Positions 1 through 26,109 of a DNA stretch of 37,402 nt are shown one piece after another. The notes under the pieces are model-generated. The model worked only from the letters and a program-made list of their open reading frames with translations, ran no database searches and was not told where the DNA came from. This stretch comes from an uncultured Nitrospina sp. (GTDB lineage Bacteria > Nitrospinota > Nitrospinia > Nitrospinales > VA-1). The stretch spans positions 1 through 37,402 of the forward strand of contig CAZEBI010000003.1 of assembly GCA_964510355.1 (NCBI GenBank), read 5' to 3'. How positions within the stretch are numbered: the first letter of the stretch is position 1; each line of letters opens with the position of its first letter. Made by a program: the position numbers and the translations under genes.

Positions 1-1
1 G

Positions 2-676
2 GAACCTTTGGGCAACATGAAGCCAATAAAAGACCTGGTGGTCGACTTCACCCCGTTCTGGGACAAGGTCAACAAGGTCAAACCTTATCTACAAGCCAAA
101 GAAGCCCCGCCGGAAAAAGAACGGCACCAATCCCAGGAAGCCTTCCTGGTGATTGATGATGCGAGCACCTGTATCATGTGCGGTGCCTGTTACTCCGACT
201 GCAATACCCTGGAGGTGGATGACAACTTCCTCGGTCCTGCGGCCCTTGCCAAGGCCCAGAGGTTTGTCGGCGATTCCCGCGATTCGCAAACCCTCGAACG
301 GGTCAAAGAACTCAGTGAACCAGGTGGCATCTGGGACTGTACCCATTGCGGCGAATGTAGTGAGCGTTGCCCGAAACCGGCCCGTCCGTTTGAGCGCATC
401 AAGGAAATCATGACCGTGGCGCTGGAGCAAGGCGTGCACAACAATACCGGAGCCCGGCACGCGCTGTCTTTTTTTAATTCCGTTAAAAGAAGCGGTAACC
501 TGAATGAAAACCGGATACCCGTTGAGTCAATGGGAATTTTCAATATTCCCGGACTGCTTAGTCTGCTTCCGATAGGAGTCAGAATGTTTCTCAAAGGCAA
601 GGTTCCCCCGGTCATTCATCATTCTATTGAAGAAGTGGATGACGTTAAACGAATTTTCAAGGAGTTGGATCAATGA
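2..676 (+). CDS. sdhB: succinate dehydrogenase/fumarate reductase iron-sulfur subunit, C-terminal part (5' end lies outside the window)
   Basis: The frame is open to the window edge. Cluster motifs [11 protein letters not shown] and [12 protein letters not shown] are present. A 4-nt ATGA overlap joins it to the next gene. Confidence 0.8.
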
Positions 677-1554
677 AGTTTGCCCTGTTTACCGGATGTG
701 TTGCCAAAGGGGCGACTCGTGAACTGATGCTTTCCACCACCAAAGCTGCCGAGGGCCTTGGTTTTGAATTCATAGAAATGAAAAGTGCGTCCTGCTGTGG
801 TGCCGGGGTGGTTTCCGAAAAAAGCCCTTTATTGGCCGATGCGCTCAACGCCCGTTCGTTTGCTATCGCTGAAAAACAAGGGCTGGACATCGTCACCATT
901 TGTTCGACTTGTCAGGGCACCTTAAAAAAGACCGAAGCGCATCTCAAAGAAGACGACGAATATAAAAAGAAGGTCAACGAGGTTTTAGAAGGCGGCGGAC
1001 ATCAGTATAACGGTACGACCCGTATCAAACATTTTGCCAACATCCTCGCTACGAAAAAGGGCATGGCAAGATTAAAAGAACGCATCAAACGGCCTTTGAC
1101 CGGGCTGAAAGTTGCGGCGTTTTATGGCTGTTATGTCCTGCGCCCTTCAGGTCTCTCTGACTTTGACAACCCGGATGATCCGACCGGCATGGAAGATATC
1201 TTTGCCGCCCTGGGCGCGACACCGGTTTATTATCCCAGCCGTGTCAAATGTTGCGGTTTCCCCATTGTCATGATGAATAAAAATGCTTCGCTGGATATGT
1301 CGGGCAACGCTTTGCTCGATGCCATTGAGCATGGTGCCGATGTCGTGGCAACCGGCTGTCCACTTTGTCATCTGAGCCTGGACTCCTACCAACCCGAAAT
1401 TGAAGTTCTGCAAAAAAACGACAACTCCATCCCCATTTTGCACCTGCCGCAATTAGTCGCCCTGGCACTGGGTTATTCCCCGGAAGAACTGGGCATGAAC
1501 AAACACATCGTCTCCACCCTGAAAATAAACGAAATCCTCTCCGCTAACGCATAG
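673..1554 (+). CDS. HdrB-like subunit with two CCG domains, of a non-classical (type E) succinate:quinone oxidoreductase/fumarate reductase
   Basis: Two cysteine-rich CCG motifs ([15 protein letters not shown]) plus CSTCQG and CPLCH. Translationally coupled to the Fe-S subunit gene. Confidence 0.7.
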
Positions 1555-1645
1555 TTTTTAGCACCCTTCAAAAGCGGATTTAACCACAGATAAATACAGA
1601 TGAACACCGATTCCTGAATGAATGGATAGGGCTTTGCCTGATTCT

Positions 1646-1755
1646 CTCCCTTCATAGGCGAGGGAGCAAAAAGTTCCTTCTCCCCTGGAGGGAGAAGGTT
1701 AGGATGAGGGGGATAAATTAATTTCCCCCTTCTACGAAGGGGGCCGGGGGGATTT
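1646..1755. repeat. cluster of three GC-tract hairpin modules (hairpin/TIR repeat family, partial copy)
   Basis: Hairpins: CTCCCT-N9-AGGGAG (1646-1666), CCTTCTCCC-CTGGA-GGGAGAAGG (1676-1698) and CCCCCTTC-TAC-GAAGGGGG (1725-1743). They are followed by GGGGCCGGGGGGATTT, the same end as the elements at 22320 and 26035. Confidence 0.7.
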
Positions 1756-1886
1756 AGAACCTCTCAGCCAATATCCGGCTAGCCGTTCAGACAACCCAGC
1801 ATCCACGTATAGTTTCTGCTGTGCTATATTCCCTTAAGGGAAGCCAATTAGTCAGCATCTCCAAATAAAAATTTCCGGGAAGTTGT

Positions 1887-1906
1887 GGTCAAGTAGCGGC
1901 TTGACC
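1887..1906. repeat. REP-like hairpin GGTCAAG-TAGCGG-CTTGACC
   Basis: A 7-bp perfect stem containing the CTTGACCCC core, 27 nt upstream of the 1933 ORF. Confidence 0.6.
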
Positions 1907-1932
1907 CCTTGATTATTCAAACGAAAGACTAG

Positions 1933-2472
1933 ATGATGGTTATTATTAAATCGAAGGGAGTAACGCCGACAGAACGTCAACTGGCCGACCTATGTGAACG
2001 CTCATTCCTAAAGCTGTGGAGTTACCCAAACCCGTTTAAAGACGACGGAAAAGAATTATGCGATCTTCTCGCTGTTTTTGAAAATCACGTATTCATCTTT
2101 TTTGATCGTGAAAATCGGCAGTTACACAATCCAGCTAAAGACCCTATGGTCAACTGGAAACGCTGGAAGAAAAAGGTGATTGATGCGCAAATTTGTACTG
2201 CGCATGGAACTGAACGATATATCAAGAGTGGACAATGTATTTTTTTGGATAACCAGCTCAATGTTCCATTTCCTATTGATATTGATGTCGATAAAATGAT
2301 AATCCACAAAATCATTATCGCGCATGGTGCCAAAGAAGCTTGTGAACAATTTTCTGGTGACAACGTATACGGCAGTCTTGCTATTTCTTATGGAAAGCAG
2401 GGGTCAAGAAGCAGGGGTCAAGAGCAGGGGTCAAGAGCAGGGGTCAAGAGCAGGGGTCAAGTCTTGAATTAA
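1933..2472 (+). CDS. hypothetical protein whose C-terminal ~25 codons are translated from the tandem motif array (probably truncated or fused)
   Basis: 179-aa ORF. The last residues, GSRSRGQEQGSRAGVKSRGQVLN, are encoded by the CAGGGGTCAAGAG repeats. No family recognised. Confidence 0.45.
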   Translation: MMVIIKSKGVTPTERQLADLCERSFLKLWSYPNPFKDDGKELCDLLAVFENHVFIFFDRENRQLHNPAKDPMVNWKRWKKKVIDAQICTAHGTERYIKSGQCIFLDNQLNVPFPIDIDVDKMIIHKIIIAHGAKEACEQFSGDNVYGSLAISYGKQGSRSRGQEQGSRAGVKSRGQVLN

Positions 2473-2497
2473 CAGCAGGGGTCAAGTCTTGAATTAA
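2398..2497 (+). repeat. tandem array of six CAGGGGTCAAG units (iteron-like, 13-bp period)
   Basis: Units start at 2398, 2412, 2425, 2438, 2451 and 2476. The last two are extended to CAGGGGTCAAGTCTTGAATTAA, and the final one overlaps the transposase stop codon. Confidence 0.9.
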
Positions 2498-3483
2498 CAA
2501 TTAAAGCTCTTAGCCTTTGTGATTTTGATCAATTTTTTAAGGTGCCTCACATTTTTTTTATCAGACTTTAAGGTCAGTTCCAGTCTTGCAATAGCTTTGG
2601 AGACTCCAGAATAGCTCATTTTATCAAAATGATTGGCAATTTCTGATAAGTTGTATCGGCCTGCTTTTCTGCTCAAATATATCGCCATGTCCCGCGGGGG
2701 GTTGGGTATCCTATGCCGACTCCGAACGAAATCTTTCATGGCCACTCCAAAATAAGCTGCGCAAATTTCCTGTATATCTTTAATGTATGGGGCGCTACGA
2801 ATTTCAAGCGCGCCCGAAATTTCAGGATTCAGTTGCTGGTCCTGAATATATCTTTCAATACTGTCCAAAAATTTTTTATTTCCCAGAACAGGAGGTAGGC
2901 GTTTTCTGGAATAAAACCGGGTTACCTCATCATCTTCTACCGCTTCAACATACTTGCGATAGAGAGACCGAGGGTTTCGACCTCCAATAATTTTTAGCAG
3001 ATAGGATGTTTCAAGCCAGCTGCATACTTTAGCTCGACCTGTATAAAACGGGTAACTGGAATAATCAAGGTCAGCCATCCAAGGGTCTTGGTCTGCTTGT
3101 ATTGGATTACGATGAATATACCGACTCACCTGTAGCAAATAACTATCAGCATCTACCAGAATCGCCTTATAACGCCCACGGAAGAGAGGTCCATCCACTC
3201 CAATGCTACGGTTGAAACGCTGTGTGTAGACGCCGTTCAAATGGCGCATGACCCGCCCCAGATTGCCCAAGGGGGTATGGATCAATAAGTGATAATGATT
3301 GGCCATCAGACAATAGGCATGGACCTCGCATTGAAACAGGGAGGAAACCTGCCCAAGCAGGTCACGAAATTGTTTGCGGTGCTCCGGTTTCCGGAAAATG
3401 TTCTTTCGTCCGGCACCCCGATTCATGACATGATACCATGCACCTGGAAATTCAATCCTTAGCGGTCTTGACATATAAGACAA
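2494..3483 (-). CDS. IS200-like Y1 (REP-associated tyrosine transposase-type) protein with a C-terminal DnaA-domain-IV-like helix-turn-helix
   Basis: Motifs PGAWYHVMNRG, HUH as HYHLLIH, and the Tyr region YIHRNP. The C-terminal ~95 aa (PRDMAIYLSRKAGRYNLSEIANHF..YSGVSKAI) resembles the DnaA C-terminal domain. The track start is TTG; ATG at 3474 is more likely. Confidence 0.85.
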   Translation of the reverse strand: MSYMSRPLRIEFPGAWYHVMNRGAGRKNIFRKPEHRKQFRDLLGQVSSLFQCEVHAYCLMANHYHLLIHTPLGNLGRVMRHLNGVYTQRFNRSIGVDGPLFRGRYKAILVDADSYLLQVSRYIHRNPIQADQDPWMADLDYSSYPFYTGRAKVCSWLETSYLLKIIGGRNPRSLYRKYVEAVEDDEVTRFYSRKRLPPVLGNKKFLDSIERYIQDQQLNPEISGALEIRSAPYIKDIQEICAAYFGVAMKDFVRSRHRIPNPPRDMAIYLSRKAGRYNLSEIANHFDKMSYSGVSKAIARLELTLKSDKKNVRHLKKLIKITKAKSFNC

Positions 3484-3502
3484 CCATACTATAGTTTATT
3501 TA

Positions 3503-3547
3503 TTAATTCAAGACTTGACCCCTTTACTTGACCCCTTTACCCCTTTA
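3503..3547 (-). repeat. inverted-orientation motif array (TTAATTCAAGACTTGACCCCT, then CTTGACCCCTTTA x2 and a partial unit)
   Basis: 13-nt units at 3514-3526 and 3527-3539, plus a partial unit at 3540-3547. This is the reverse complement of the core in the 2398-2497 array. Confidence 0.85.
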
Positions 3548-4252
3548 TTAATGTATGGGGGCGCTACGAATTTCAAGCGCGCCCGAAATTTCAGGATTCA
3601 GTTGCTGGTCCTGAATATATCTTTCAATACTGTCCAAAAATTTTTTATTTCCCAGAACAGGAGGTAGGCGTTTTCTGGAATAAAACCGGGTTACCTCATC
3701 ATCTTCTACCGCTTCAACATACTTGCGATAGAGAGACCGAGGGTTTCGACCTCCAATAATTTTTAGCAGATAGGATGTTTCAAGCCAGCTGCATACTTTA
3801 GCTCGACCTGTATAAAACGGGTAACTGGAATAATCAAGGTCAGCCATCCAAGGGTCTTGGTCTGCTTGTATTGGATTACGATGAATATACCGACTCACCT
3901 GTAGCAAATAACTATCAGCATCTACCAGAATCGCCTTATAACGCCCACGGAAGAGAGGTCCATCCACTCCAATGCTACGGTTGAAACGCTGTGTGTAGAC
4001 GCCGTTCAAATGGCGCATGACCCGCCCCAGATTGCCCAAGGGGGTATGGATCAATAAGTGATAATGATTGGCCATCAGACAATAGGCATGGACCTCGCAT
4101 TGAAACAGGGAGGAAACCTGCCCAAGCAGGTCACGAAATTGTTTGCGGTGCTCCGGTTTCCGGAAAATGTTCTTTCGTCCGGCACCCCGATTCATGACAT
4201 GATACCATGCACCTGGAAATTCAATCCTTAGCGGTCTTGACATATAAGACAA
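3548..4252 (-). CDS. 3'-truncated tandem duplicate of the Y1 transposase (Y1 domain only, lacks the HTH); possibly a pseudogene
   Basis: The first 231 aa are identical to the 2494..3483 product. Homology ends at 3548. One extra G sits in a G-run (5 G at 3557-3561 versus 4 G at 2789-2792). Confidence 0.7.
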   Translation of the reverse strand: MSYMSRPLRIEFPGAWYHVMNRGAGRKNIFRKPEHRKQFRDLLGQVSSLFQCEVHAYCLMANHYHLLIHTPLGNLGRVMRHLNGVYTQRFNRSIGVDGPLFRGRYKAILVDADSYLLQVSRYIHRNPIQADQDPWMADLDYSSYPFYTGRAKVCSWLETSYLLKIIGGRNPRSLYRKYVEAVEDDEVTRFYSRKRLPPVLGNKKFLDSIERYIQDQQLNPEISGALEIRSAPIH

Positions 4253-4271
4253 CCATACTATAGTTTATTTA

Positions 4272-4292
4272 TTAATTCAAGACTTGACCCCT
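4272..4292 (-). repeat. single terminal copy of TTAATTCAAGACTTGACCCCT
   Basis: Identical to 3503-3523 and part of the duplicated segment. Confidence 0.85.
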
Positions 4293-4478
4293 TTATTTAT
4301 TCCATATTTTTTCATTACGCTTTCTCCTAAACCTGAACTCGTACGATCAGATTTTTTCAATTAGATGAAAATATAGTCAGGGCATCGAGTTGTTTCCGCA
4401 GGCAAGCAGAAAACAACACAAACTTCGCGCAGAGCGACGGCGCGGCCTGACAATTATTTTGTAACTATTAGGAGTTGA

Positions 4479-4883
4479 TCAGCTAAAACGAGGAGGAGGG
4501 TCCAGGAGGTCGAACAGATGAAAATCGTAGGAAGATAAAATATTTTTCATATTTCCTACGACTATGAAAACAGGGGTTGCCGGGGTTTCGAACCATACGG
4601 TCAGGTTTTTGCTGGCTGAACTATGAGACGGCAAAGTTCCCGGGGTTTTACCGCCACAATCTGCGGCAATCAGGAACTCGGCTGTCTTGTCTTTTGACGG
4701 CAAGCTATGCGGGCAAAATCCAAAATGAGTATGGCTTTTGAGGATACAATGAGCCGAGGGTGCGCCTTGTTTTTTATCAAAGGGAGAAACCTGTTCTCCA
4801 TTGTGATGGTGCGGTGAGGCCATAGCCCCTGGAGCCCAGGCCATCAACACGAACAGGATTAAAGTCACAGTTTTTATGCGCAT
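4479..4883 (-). CDS. secreted His/Cys-rich hypothetical protein
   Basis: The internal Met gives a signal peptide, MRIKTVTLILFVLMAWAPGAMA, followed by SPHHHNGE. Also has HCILKSHTHFGFCPH. No family recognised. Confidence 0.55.
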   Translation of the reverse strand: MRIKTVTLILFVLMAWAPGAMASPHHHNGEQVSPFDKKQGAPSAHCILKSHTHFGFCPHSLPSKDKTAEFLIAADCGGKTPGTLPSHSSASKNLTVWFETPATPVFIVVGNMKNILSSYDFHLFDLLDPPPRFS

Positions 4884-22319: not shown

Positions 22320-22435
22320 AAATCCCCCCAACCCCCTTCGTAGAAGGGGGAGCTTTCAATGGACCCCTCTTTTACAAAGTACCCACTTCGGGGCACGAGG
22401 CAAGTGAAAAAATATCACGGGGGCTGGGGTGATTT
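22320..22435 (-). repeat. 116-bp MITE-like element with 16-bp imperfect terminal inverted repeats and C5/G5 hairpins
   Basis: Ends are AAATCCCCCCAACCCC and GGGGCTGGGGTGATTT. It is near-identical, in reverse orientation, to both ends of 26035-26109. Confidence 0.75.
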
Positions 22436-26034: not shown

Positions 26035-26109
26035 AAATCACCCCAGCCCCTCTTTAAAAAGAGGGGTCCATTGAAGCTCCCCCTTCTACGAAGGGGGTTG
26101 GGGGGATTT
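26035..26109 (+). repeat. 75-bp MITE-like element (same family as 22320-22435)
   Basis: TIRs AAATCACCCCAGCCCC and GGGGTTGGGGGGATTT match at 14/16 as inverted repeats. Internal hairpins are CCCCTCTT-TAAA-AAGAGGGG and CCCCCTTC-TAC-GAAGGGGG. Confidence 0.75.

Follow-up and report, generated by a model that had tools for sequence, protein, structure and literature searches.

A probable TIRtron with apparent partial copies of its own ends in an uncultured Nitrospina sp.

The HUH/tyrosine sites of RAYT systems (tyrosine transposases associated with repetitive extragenic palindromes, REPs) and IS200/IS605 systems nick and rejoin single-stranded DNA. The present analysis concerns a related gene, and the repeats that surround it, within a stretch of 37,402 nt from contig CAZEBI010000003.1 of an uncultured Nitrospina sp. 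(assembly GCA_964510355.1), referred to below as the window. Genes of this type were named TIRYT, and the combination of gene and repeats TIRtron, by Di Nocera, De Gregorio & Rocco (2013, BMC Genomics 14:522; PMC3733652). According to the available part of that paper, the terminal inverted repeats (TIR) share the motif GGGGWSAS, are found at a near-constant distance from the gene and may overlap its ends, while in some genomes the repeats also occur elsewhere singly, as dimers or in groups. Quentin et al. (2018, BMC Genomics 19:475; PMC6006769) described a Bac_DnaA_C-like C-terminal region in subclass 2.1.2 of the TnpA_REP proteins, equated subclass 2.1 with the TIRYTs and raised the question of whether this domain reads the GGGG[AT][CG]A[CG] repeat; they also noted that the motif is unlike a DnaA box, and suggested replication-related DNA as a possible target of the domain. 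The initial annotation of the window, made from sequence alone, regarded the fusion as experimentally uncharacterised. This stands insofar as literature searches found no experimental study of the TIRYT subfamily, and nothing on it beyond the 2013 and 2018 papers, but the architecture itself had already been published (PMC6006769 and the part of PMC3733652 available). As both the fusion and the GGGG-type inverted flanks have been described, the element is, to judge by its sequence, a member of a known and very large family.

Positions 2396-4295 of the window probably represent a TIRtron, a compact element of ~1.05 kb from repeat to repeat with a TIRYT as its sole gene. The arrays of short repeats at its ends are likely, on the basis of their anatomy, to be nested partial copies of those ends, arising as by-products of nick-and-join chemistry together with slippage. 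They are read as such end scars because of the outer boundary shared by the units, the unequal lengths of these units, an excess of direct-orientation copies and the presence of single cores in close orthologues. The gene lies on the reverse strand at 2494..3474 and encodes 326 aa from a conserved ATG, as judged from the list of open reading frames (ORFs) and from family alignments. It had first been given as the mechanically called ORF, 2494..3483, which starts with a TTG at 3483; the N-terminus MSRPLRIE is common to all relatives, and therefore the start is placed at the ATG at 3474 instead. Both in the window and in the family ends, the layout is compact, with the gene filling the element from repeat to repeat.

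The ends were identified by an inverted-repeat search as a perfect 21 nt inverted repeat, AGGGGTCAAGTCTTGAATTAA, with the GGGG facing outward. It occurs beyond the 3' end of the gene at 2477..2497 (+), upstream of the gene at 3503..3523 (-), its core beginning 47 nt from the ATG, and again at 4272-4292. The outer core of the element ends is AGGGGTCAAG(TCT), usually followed by a short dyad, GTCAA..TTGAC; GGGGTCAA fits GGGGWSAS at 7/8 positions, with relatives carrying either GGGGTCAA or GGGGTCAG. A motif scan found ten exact copies of the 10-mer AGGGGTCAAG, starting at 2399, 2413, 2426, 2439, 2452 and 2477 (+) and at 1900, 3514, 3527 and 4283 (-). All of these fall within 1900-4292, in agreement with the ten perfect cores, and none elsewhere in the window, that had been reported. 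When up to one mismatch is allowed there are 12 matches, against 2.1 expected, a total reached in none of 100 shuffles. The inverted disposition of these motifs, six of which lie beyond the 3' end of the gene, while the 5' side has two together with a partial unit, is likewise as first described, and inverted flanking motifs are also a property of the family as a whole. The last unit had been thought to overlap the stop codon: the last 10-mer (2477-2486) is clear of the stop (2494-2496), but the 21 nt repeat (2477-2497) does overlap it.

Tandem Repeats Finder reported a 13 bp period at 2396-2461 (5.0 copies, 98% match), a 25 bp period at 2449-2499 and a second 13 bp period at 3513-3540. On the 3' side, the putative nested partial copies of the end, each starting AGCA|GGGGTCAAG, occupy 2396..2473 (+) and measure 14, 13, 13, 13 and 25 nt before the full end is reached; these are also the start-to-start distances, so that four units are spaced at exactly 13 bp, as originally noted. 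The 13 bp period consists of N4 followed by GGGGTCAAG, and three consecutive 13-mers are identical. On the 5' side, the corresponding copies at 3527..3547 (-) are TAAAGGGGTCAAG, of 13 nt (3527-3539), and TAAAGGGG, of 8 nt (3540-3547), the latter being a partial inverted copy, CCCCTTTA, that follows the inverted copies at 3514 and 3527. Adjoining these is a 748 nt partial tandem copy of the element (3548..4295, -), comprising the 5' TIR at 4272-4292, the leader and the first ~230 codons, of which 738 nt are identical to the original (3558-4295 = 2789-3526, the exact extent of the direct repeat; tblastn). Its ORF, 3548..4252, encodes 234 aa with the Pfam Y1_Tnp domain only, lacking the DnaA-like domain, and there is a 1 nt homopolymer difference near the end. 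This duplicate, to which the AGGGGTCAAG copy at 4283 belongs, was absent from the initial description. Its inner end is joined to the 8 nt unit. The units on the 5' side have a shared start, TAAA|GGGG, and lengths of 8, 13 and 748 nt, then the full end. On both sides the outer boundary of the units is 4 nt outside the GGGG, and the inner stop is variable, most commonly falling after GGGGTCA(AG).

A second metagenome contig, L001, assembled independently from another sample, matches the window without mismatch between ~700 and 3796 and differs there by two indels alone: it lacks a single 13 nt unit, and 15 nt of the gene are deleted in frame. The inner end of the 748 nt copy has the same junction with the 8 nt unit in L001. 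The recurrence of the junctions in an independent contig means the duplication junctions are real, ruling out an assembly artefact, and that the length of the array is polymorphic. As there are five 3' units in L001 and six in the window, in strains otherwise identical over ~3 kb, the copy number is variable and the arrays do not form a conserved iteron set. Nested insertion of the element into itself was also considered and rejected: the fragments to the left (748, 8 and 13 nt) and right (14, 13, 13, 13 and 25 nt) do not sum to split elements, and no displaced 3' part of the gene follows the full copy.

Among 8,000 scored candidates, 7,966 were homologous to the TIRYT, nearly all with both Pfam domains, and clustering at 50% identity yields no fewer than 1,235 family clusters (match E <= 1e-30). 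Eighty loci were fetched, one genome per species, from Nitrospinota, Gammaproteobacteria, Deltaproteobacteria/Desulfobacterota, Nitrospirota, Planctomycetota, Acidimicrobiales and others, and end statistics were drawn from the 65 with intact genes and enough flank. The sequence GGGTCA was present upstream in 56 of the 65, mostly 44-57 nt before the ATG, and an inverted copy at the 3' end in 47, with the consensus aaAGGGGTCAAGTCT....TTGAC; in ~20 loci the TGA contained in TTGACCCC serves as the stop codon. It had been expected that flanking motifs might co-vary among orthologues, but the core (A)GGGGTCA[AG][GA]TCT proved nearly invariant in 65 relatives from many phyla at ~40% protein identity. 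A comparison of the basic loop and recognition helix of the protein with both repeats in 66 loci, which is confounded by phylogeny, similarly found the core invariant and the inner repeat clade-linked. Of 107 repeats, 44 contain the dyad GTCA..TGAC, where shuffled sequences gave 5.4; its loop ranges from 3 to 14 nt. Spacing this variable is more in keeping with a hairpin within one strand, of the kind found in REPs and at IS200/IS605 ends, than with a duplex dimer site of fixed spacing.

Multiple cores are the exception within the family, as 75 of 101 ends have just one. The nearest orthologues have one core per end, seen on both sides in L004 (60% identity) and L005 (51%) and only on the upstream side in L002 and L003 (80%), since these contigs stop at the stop codon; hence the arrays are not a conserved feature. 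At the other 26 ends, extra direct-orientation cores are found up to 250 nt outward (43 copies, with 5 inverted copies in the same region), while control windows of the same size inside genes contain 5 direct and 3 inverted cores. Where units accumulate, they tend to resemble those of the window: in L051 units of 11, 11, 25 and 41 nt have the shared start TAAAGGGG, L045 and L053 have units of unequal length with a shared boundary on the 3' side, and the same boundary-anchored pattern is evident in the gene-less repeats of L092, L102, L106, L115 and L118. The commonest stop for a unit is after GGGGTCA, GGGGTCAA or GGGGTCAAG, which generates periods of 11-15 nt. Upstream of the gene in L017, L043 and L064 there are partial copies that extend from the inverted repeat through the leader and reach codon 8 at most, after which a new end follows; these are recognisable as small-scale counterparts of the 748 nt gene copy.

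The motifs originally highlighted in the protein, PGAWYHVMNRG, NHYHLLIH and RYIHRNP, are all found in the ORF translation. H60-Y61-H62 constitutes the HUH motif and Y119, in RYIHRNP, the catalytic tyrosine; in an alignment of 99 sequences Y61, H62 and Y119 are invariant, and H60 is invariant or nearly so. Profile searches, which had been proposed as a check, returned both expected domains above threshold: Y1_Tnp (PF01797, 7e-15) at aa 15-126 (3097..3432, -) and Bac_DnaA_C (PF08299, 2e-9, 37.8 bits against a gathering score of 31.5) at aa 234-299 (2578..2775, -), the latter a helix-turn-helix (HTH) like that of DnaA domain IV. The last ~90 positions of the NCBIfam DnaA models also match the protein (7e-11 for the C-terminal part of TIGR00362), while the REP-associated tyrosine transposase model NF047646 scores 55.4 bits, below its equivalog cut-off of 80, and the IS200 transposase model NF033573 is likewise sub-threshold (18 bits against 55). 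A phmmer search of the PDB matched DnaA chains only, the alignment spanning the whole of domain IV. An AlphaFold2 model built from 99 sequences had a mean pLDDT of 90. When the model was compared with the PDB using Foldseek, its N-terminal part was closest to 4er8_A (E 1.3e-6, TM 0.72), the E. coli REP-associated tyrosine transposase with its REP hairpin bound, and then to the ISDra2, IS608 and IS200 transposases; its C-terminal part superposed on 1j1v_A, DnaA domain IV on a DnaA box, and 3pvp_A (TM 0.88, rmsd 1.7 Å). The RAYT-type and DnaA-like assignments made at the outset are therefore upheld, and the TIRYT is predicted to be a RAYT-like Y1 HUH tyrosine transposase whose C-terminus is an HTH resembling DnaA domain IV. 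Its architecture, and homologues named RayT or REP-associated tyrosine transposase, place it in TnpA_REP subclass 2.1.2. It is not a DnaA initiator: only the last ~90 residues match, with no AAA+ or other DnaA domain found in the protein. The 15 nt in-frame deletion in L001, corresponding to 2908-2922 (-), removes 5 aa, in the TRFYS region, from the linker that connects the Y1 domain to the HTH, which indicates that this linker tolerates a change of length within the population.

In the alignment to DnaA, the basic loop RSRHRIPNPPR and the arginine preceding the first helix of the HTH are retained, and the recognition helix reads SYSGVSKAI in place of DHTTVxHA. The base contacts of DnaA in the 1j1v structure are reportedly made by P423, D433, H434, T435 and H439 (E. 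coli numbering). The equivalents of all five are substituted in the window protein, so a different specificity is expected for the HTH; from its sequence, it would be a specificity other than for the DnaA box. The initial annotation had instead proposed that the arrays are iteron-like sites the size of a DnaA box, read by the HTH in order to load or target the HUH nuclease, which would make their multiplicity functional. The DnaA domain IV fold with its basic loop, a 9-12 nt core nearly invariant across phyla, as would be expected of a site read by a protein, and the recurrence of extra cores in the family all accord with this model. Set against these are the single cores of 75 of the 101 ends, those of the nearest orthologues among them, the copy number polymorphism between near-identical strains and the replacement of every residue reported to contact bases in the 1j1v work. 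Furthermore, units are truncated to varying extents, some lacking most of the core (TAAAGGGG in the window, GAAGATAAGG in L118). The core is also retained, as GGGTCAGG, by a sub-clade (L061, L067, L070, L073, L080 and L081) with a shorter HTH, in which the basic loop is deleted and the helix reads GIGE-SAVSQ, which means that association with the core does not depend on the domain being of the DnaA type. Within this sub-clade, the flanks of L061, L067, L070 and L073 still have GGGTCAGGTCTACAC...TTGAC repeats, and L080 and L081 have a related repeat, GTGTCAGGCCT, without the GGGTCA core. The motif is moreover unlike a DnaA box (PMC6006769). The iteron interpretation thus fails on regularity and on conservation among relatives, the units being partial, unequal and anchored at the element boundary, and it is considered quite unlikely.

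A second alternative is that the arrays are microsatellites produced by slippage alone at repeat-prone ends and have nothing to do with the transposase. Three consecutive identical 13-mers, a difference of exactly one unit between L001 and the window, and the 1 nt microhomology (T) possible at the 5'-side junctions are all in keeping with such an origin. However, the same part of the element is duplicated in direct orientation in many phyla, with 43 direct and 5 inverted copies outward of the ends and 5 direct copies inside genes, and slippage leaves unexplained those series in which units of differing length have one boundary in common, such as the 8, 13 and 748 nt of the window or the 11, 11, 25 and 41 nt of L051. 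It can account for expansion but not for boundary-anchored series at many independent loci, and as a complete explanation it appears unlikely.

A mechanism can be proposed by analogy with RAYT and IS200/IS605 transposases (structures 4er8, 2vjv and 2xm3). The HUH/tyrosine centre would nick single-stranded DNA near the GGGG-tagged dyad and stay linked to the 5' end, with nicking and rejoining expected at or next to the core AGGGGTCAAG(TCT). The HTH is probably a sequence-specific anchor, possibly on the double-stranded core; it could serve to anchor the protein on the duplex core, in autoregulation or in targeting replication-related DNA. In a side reaction, to judge by the anatomy of the partial copies, the retained 5' end, with its fixed boundary, would be linked to a 3'-OH at a variable distance inside another copy; either a nascent strand or a second cut, made after GGGGTCAAG or GGGGTCA(AG), might supply this 3'-OH. 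Such joining to a sister copy or nascent strand would duplicate ends and, occasionally, large parts of genes, making the 748 nt partial gene copy a long version of the same event, and identical 13-mers could afterwards be amplified or lost by slippage. More tentatively, the nested copies might be in vivo footprints of TIRYT cleavage and joining, with an outer site 4-7 nt outside the GGGG and an inner one after GGGGTCA(AG), though this is rather doubtful.

Several observations weigh against such an account of the arrays. The distance of the outer boundary from the GGGG differs between loci, from about 3 to 10 nt, which is unexpected for a strictly site-specific cut without a guide-type mechanism. 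The repeat of the window element itself forms only a weak hairpin (-0.9 kcal/mol, z -0.1 to -1.6), unlike the solo unit at 1886-1909 and many relatives, which have a good one, and there is one full copy of the element in the 37 kb window. The identical run of three 13-mers, taken together with the polymorphism of one unit, is what plain slippage would be expected to produce. In addition, the activity ascribed to TIRYTs, their substrate (single- or double-stranded), where they cleave and what the HTH contributes are all predictions.

The element has probably truncated a host gene. What remains of it, at 1933..2398 (+), encodes ~155 aa from the N-terminus of a protein in a conserved hypothetical family, and homology stops where the array begins. 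The listed ORF, 1933..2472 (179 aa), reads on into the array, while full-length members of the family are ~240-300 aa and have no Pfam domain. Simple insertion was rejected, as the C-terminal half of the interrupted gene was found neither on the other side of the element nor anywhere else in the 37 kb window. The event must then have included a deletion or rearrangement, and no target site duplication can be defined. A solo end-like unit, AGGGGTCAAG-CCGCTA-CTTGACC, containing the motif at 1900 and also present in L001, is located at 1886..1909 (-), 24 nt upstream of the truncated gene; as single-stranded DNA it is predicted to fold into a hairpin of 7-8 bp (-6.6 kcal/mol, z -3.9). Like the partial duplicate, the solo hairpin unit and the truncated gene were absent from the initial description. 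The GTAG-tagged REP palindromes of classical RAYTs were not found in the flanks, which carry GGGG-tagged inverted repeats instead, with this one solo unit in the 37 kb.

Copies of the repeat are dispersed more widely. An exact 20-mer from it was present in 36 metagenome contigs, only 2-3 of which had a TIRYT gene nearby. Some 12 of the 36 harbour short gene-less doublets, in which the inverted partner is 62-260 nt away (L087, L088, L091, L093, L099, L100, L106, L108, L114 and L115 among them), bounded by the exact inverted repeat; the remainder are solo copies beside unrelated genes. A doublet of ~116 nt, found in at least three different flanking contexts in soil metagenomes, is consistent in sequence with being a derivative akin to a miniature inverted-repeat transposable element or REPIN. 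By analogy with REPINs, dispersed gene-less copies of this kind are the pattern to be expected of non-autonomous derivatives moved in trans. The evidence for mobility thus consists of the interrupted host gene and the many metagenome contexts of the repeat, with a single locus from this organism. Carriage on plasmids was tested and rejected, as a tblastn search of PLSDB (72,556 plasmid records) gave a single full-length match to the family.

This last result would suit a third alternative, namely that the TIRYT is a domesticated, immobile, single-copy host gene, its repeats being operators for autoregulation by the HTH and the extra copies neutral debris. RAYTs are generally viewed as domesticated single-copy genes, according to the literature in the part available, and the 5' repeat, 20-50 nt before the ATG, is positioned as a promoter or operator might be. 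Yet the same repeat overlaps the stop codon, where an operator has no need of it, and no sigma-70-like promoter for the transposase gene was found in the 5' repeat region, where the only consensus match seen faces outward. Given also the interruption of a conserved gene in the window, and the gene-less doublets and solo copies of the exact repeat in many unrelated contexts, domestication is judged improbable.

The outward-facing match is a near-consensus sigma-70-type sequence, TTGACA-16-TATAGT (11/12), present in both copies of the 5' region, at 3468-3495 and 4237-4264 (+). It overlaps the transposase start codon on the opposite strand, reads across the 5' inverted repeat towards the outside of the element and derives its TTGACA from the conserved ATG-TCA-AGA codons. 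Searches of the locus for other features were negative, with no Rfam match at E <= 1 to a structured RNA in 1600-4600 and no PADLOC match to a defence system. The window also contains a second, unrelated REP-like family, with a unit of ~60 nt comprising the perfect palindrome CCCCCTTC-TAC-GAAGGGGG and then GGGGGGATTT. Copies are found at 1709-1755 (+), 26063-26109 (+) and 22320-22351 (-), three in 37 kb against 0.01 expected, and a distance of just ~130 nt separates one of them from the hairpin of the solo GGGGTCAAG unit. Far from TIRYT genes, the TGACCC/GGGGTCA core is sometimes clustered with a period of 6-7 nt: ~1,764-1,804 nt past the stop in L006, and at 7570-7577 in L091, 8263-8270 in L093 and 3155-3176 in L100. 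They possibly represent another short tandem repeat, in which the core is included by chance. Finally, in the comparison of L001 with positions 1-3796 of the window, all mismatches (90 in a MAFFT alignment, 83 by BLAST) fall in 1-~650, within an iron-sulfur subunit gene, which suggests that recombination has left a boundary here or that one of the assemblies mixes strains.

For annotation, the value of the locus is small, as the element adds a further copy to a family that is very common and already described. Its nested end duplications, which recur across the family, may be the one aspect that is new and useful. Together with the partial gene copy and the truncated neighbour, they indicate that TIRYT elements remodel their surroundings, and they may record the positions of cuts. 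Should the footprint interpretation be correct, it would provide the first mechanistic handle on an uncharacterised HUH family of >1,000 clusters at 50% identity, and would reveal a new route by which HUH enzymes generate tandem repeats. The end motif, AGGGGTCAAGTCT plus dyad across phyla, is far more conserved than the earlier consensus implied, so that a TIRYT and its DnaA-like domain could first be studied biochemically on a well-defined substrate.

Of the systems described previously, the TIRYT/TIRtron is the closest, sharing with the window a Y1 transposase, terminal inverted repeats instead of REPs and a motif of the GGGGWSAS type. The boundary-anchored nested end copies and the partial tandem gene copy do not appear in the available text of PMC3733652, Figure 9 of which may show examples; nor does that text list the host of the window, which is uncultured and probably Nitrospinota-like. 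The protein is a long TnpA_REP with a Bac_DnaA_C-like tail, as in subclass 2.1.2, but no REP-like sequences were found near those genes (PMC6006769), whereas most of the present loci have inverted repeats, many of them with a dyad. RAYT/REP/REPIN systems have the same catalytic fold, an inverted 4 nt tag and palindrome that bracket the gene, and dispersed gene-less doublets. By contrast, the tag in the window is GGGG rather than GTAG, the protein is twice as long and has an added HTH, and the palindrome is short and not always present. The IS200/IS605 elements (IS608, ISDra2) provide a mechanistic analogy through their HUH/Y1 chemistry and fold, subterminal hairpins and offset cleavage sites; their ends are not inverted repeats, unlike those of the window, and their TnpA has no HTH. 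DnaA domain IV resembles the C-terminal ~95 aa in fold and the DnaA box resembles the core in site size (~9 bp), but the motif bears no relation to TTATNCACA, the protein lacks an AAA+ domain and the residues of its recognition helix differ from those of DnaA. Unlike plasmid iterons, the arrays of the window are irregular, not conserved and not situated at a replication origin.

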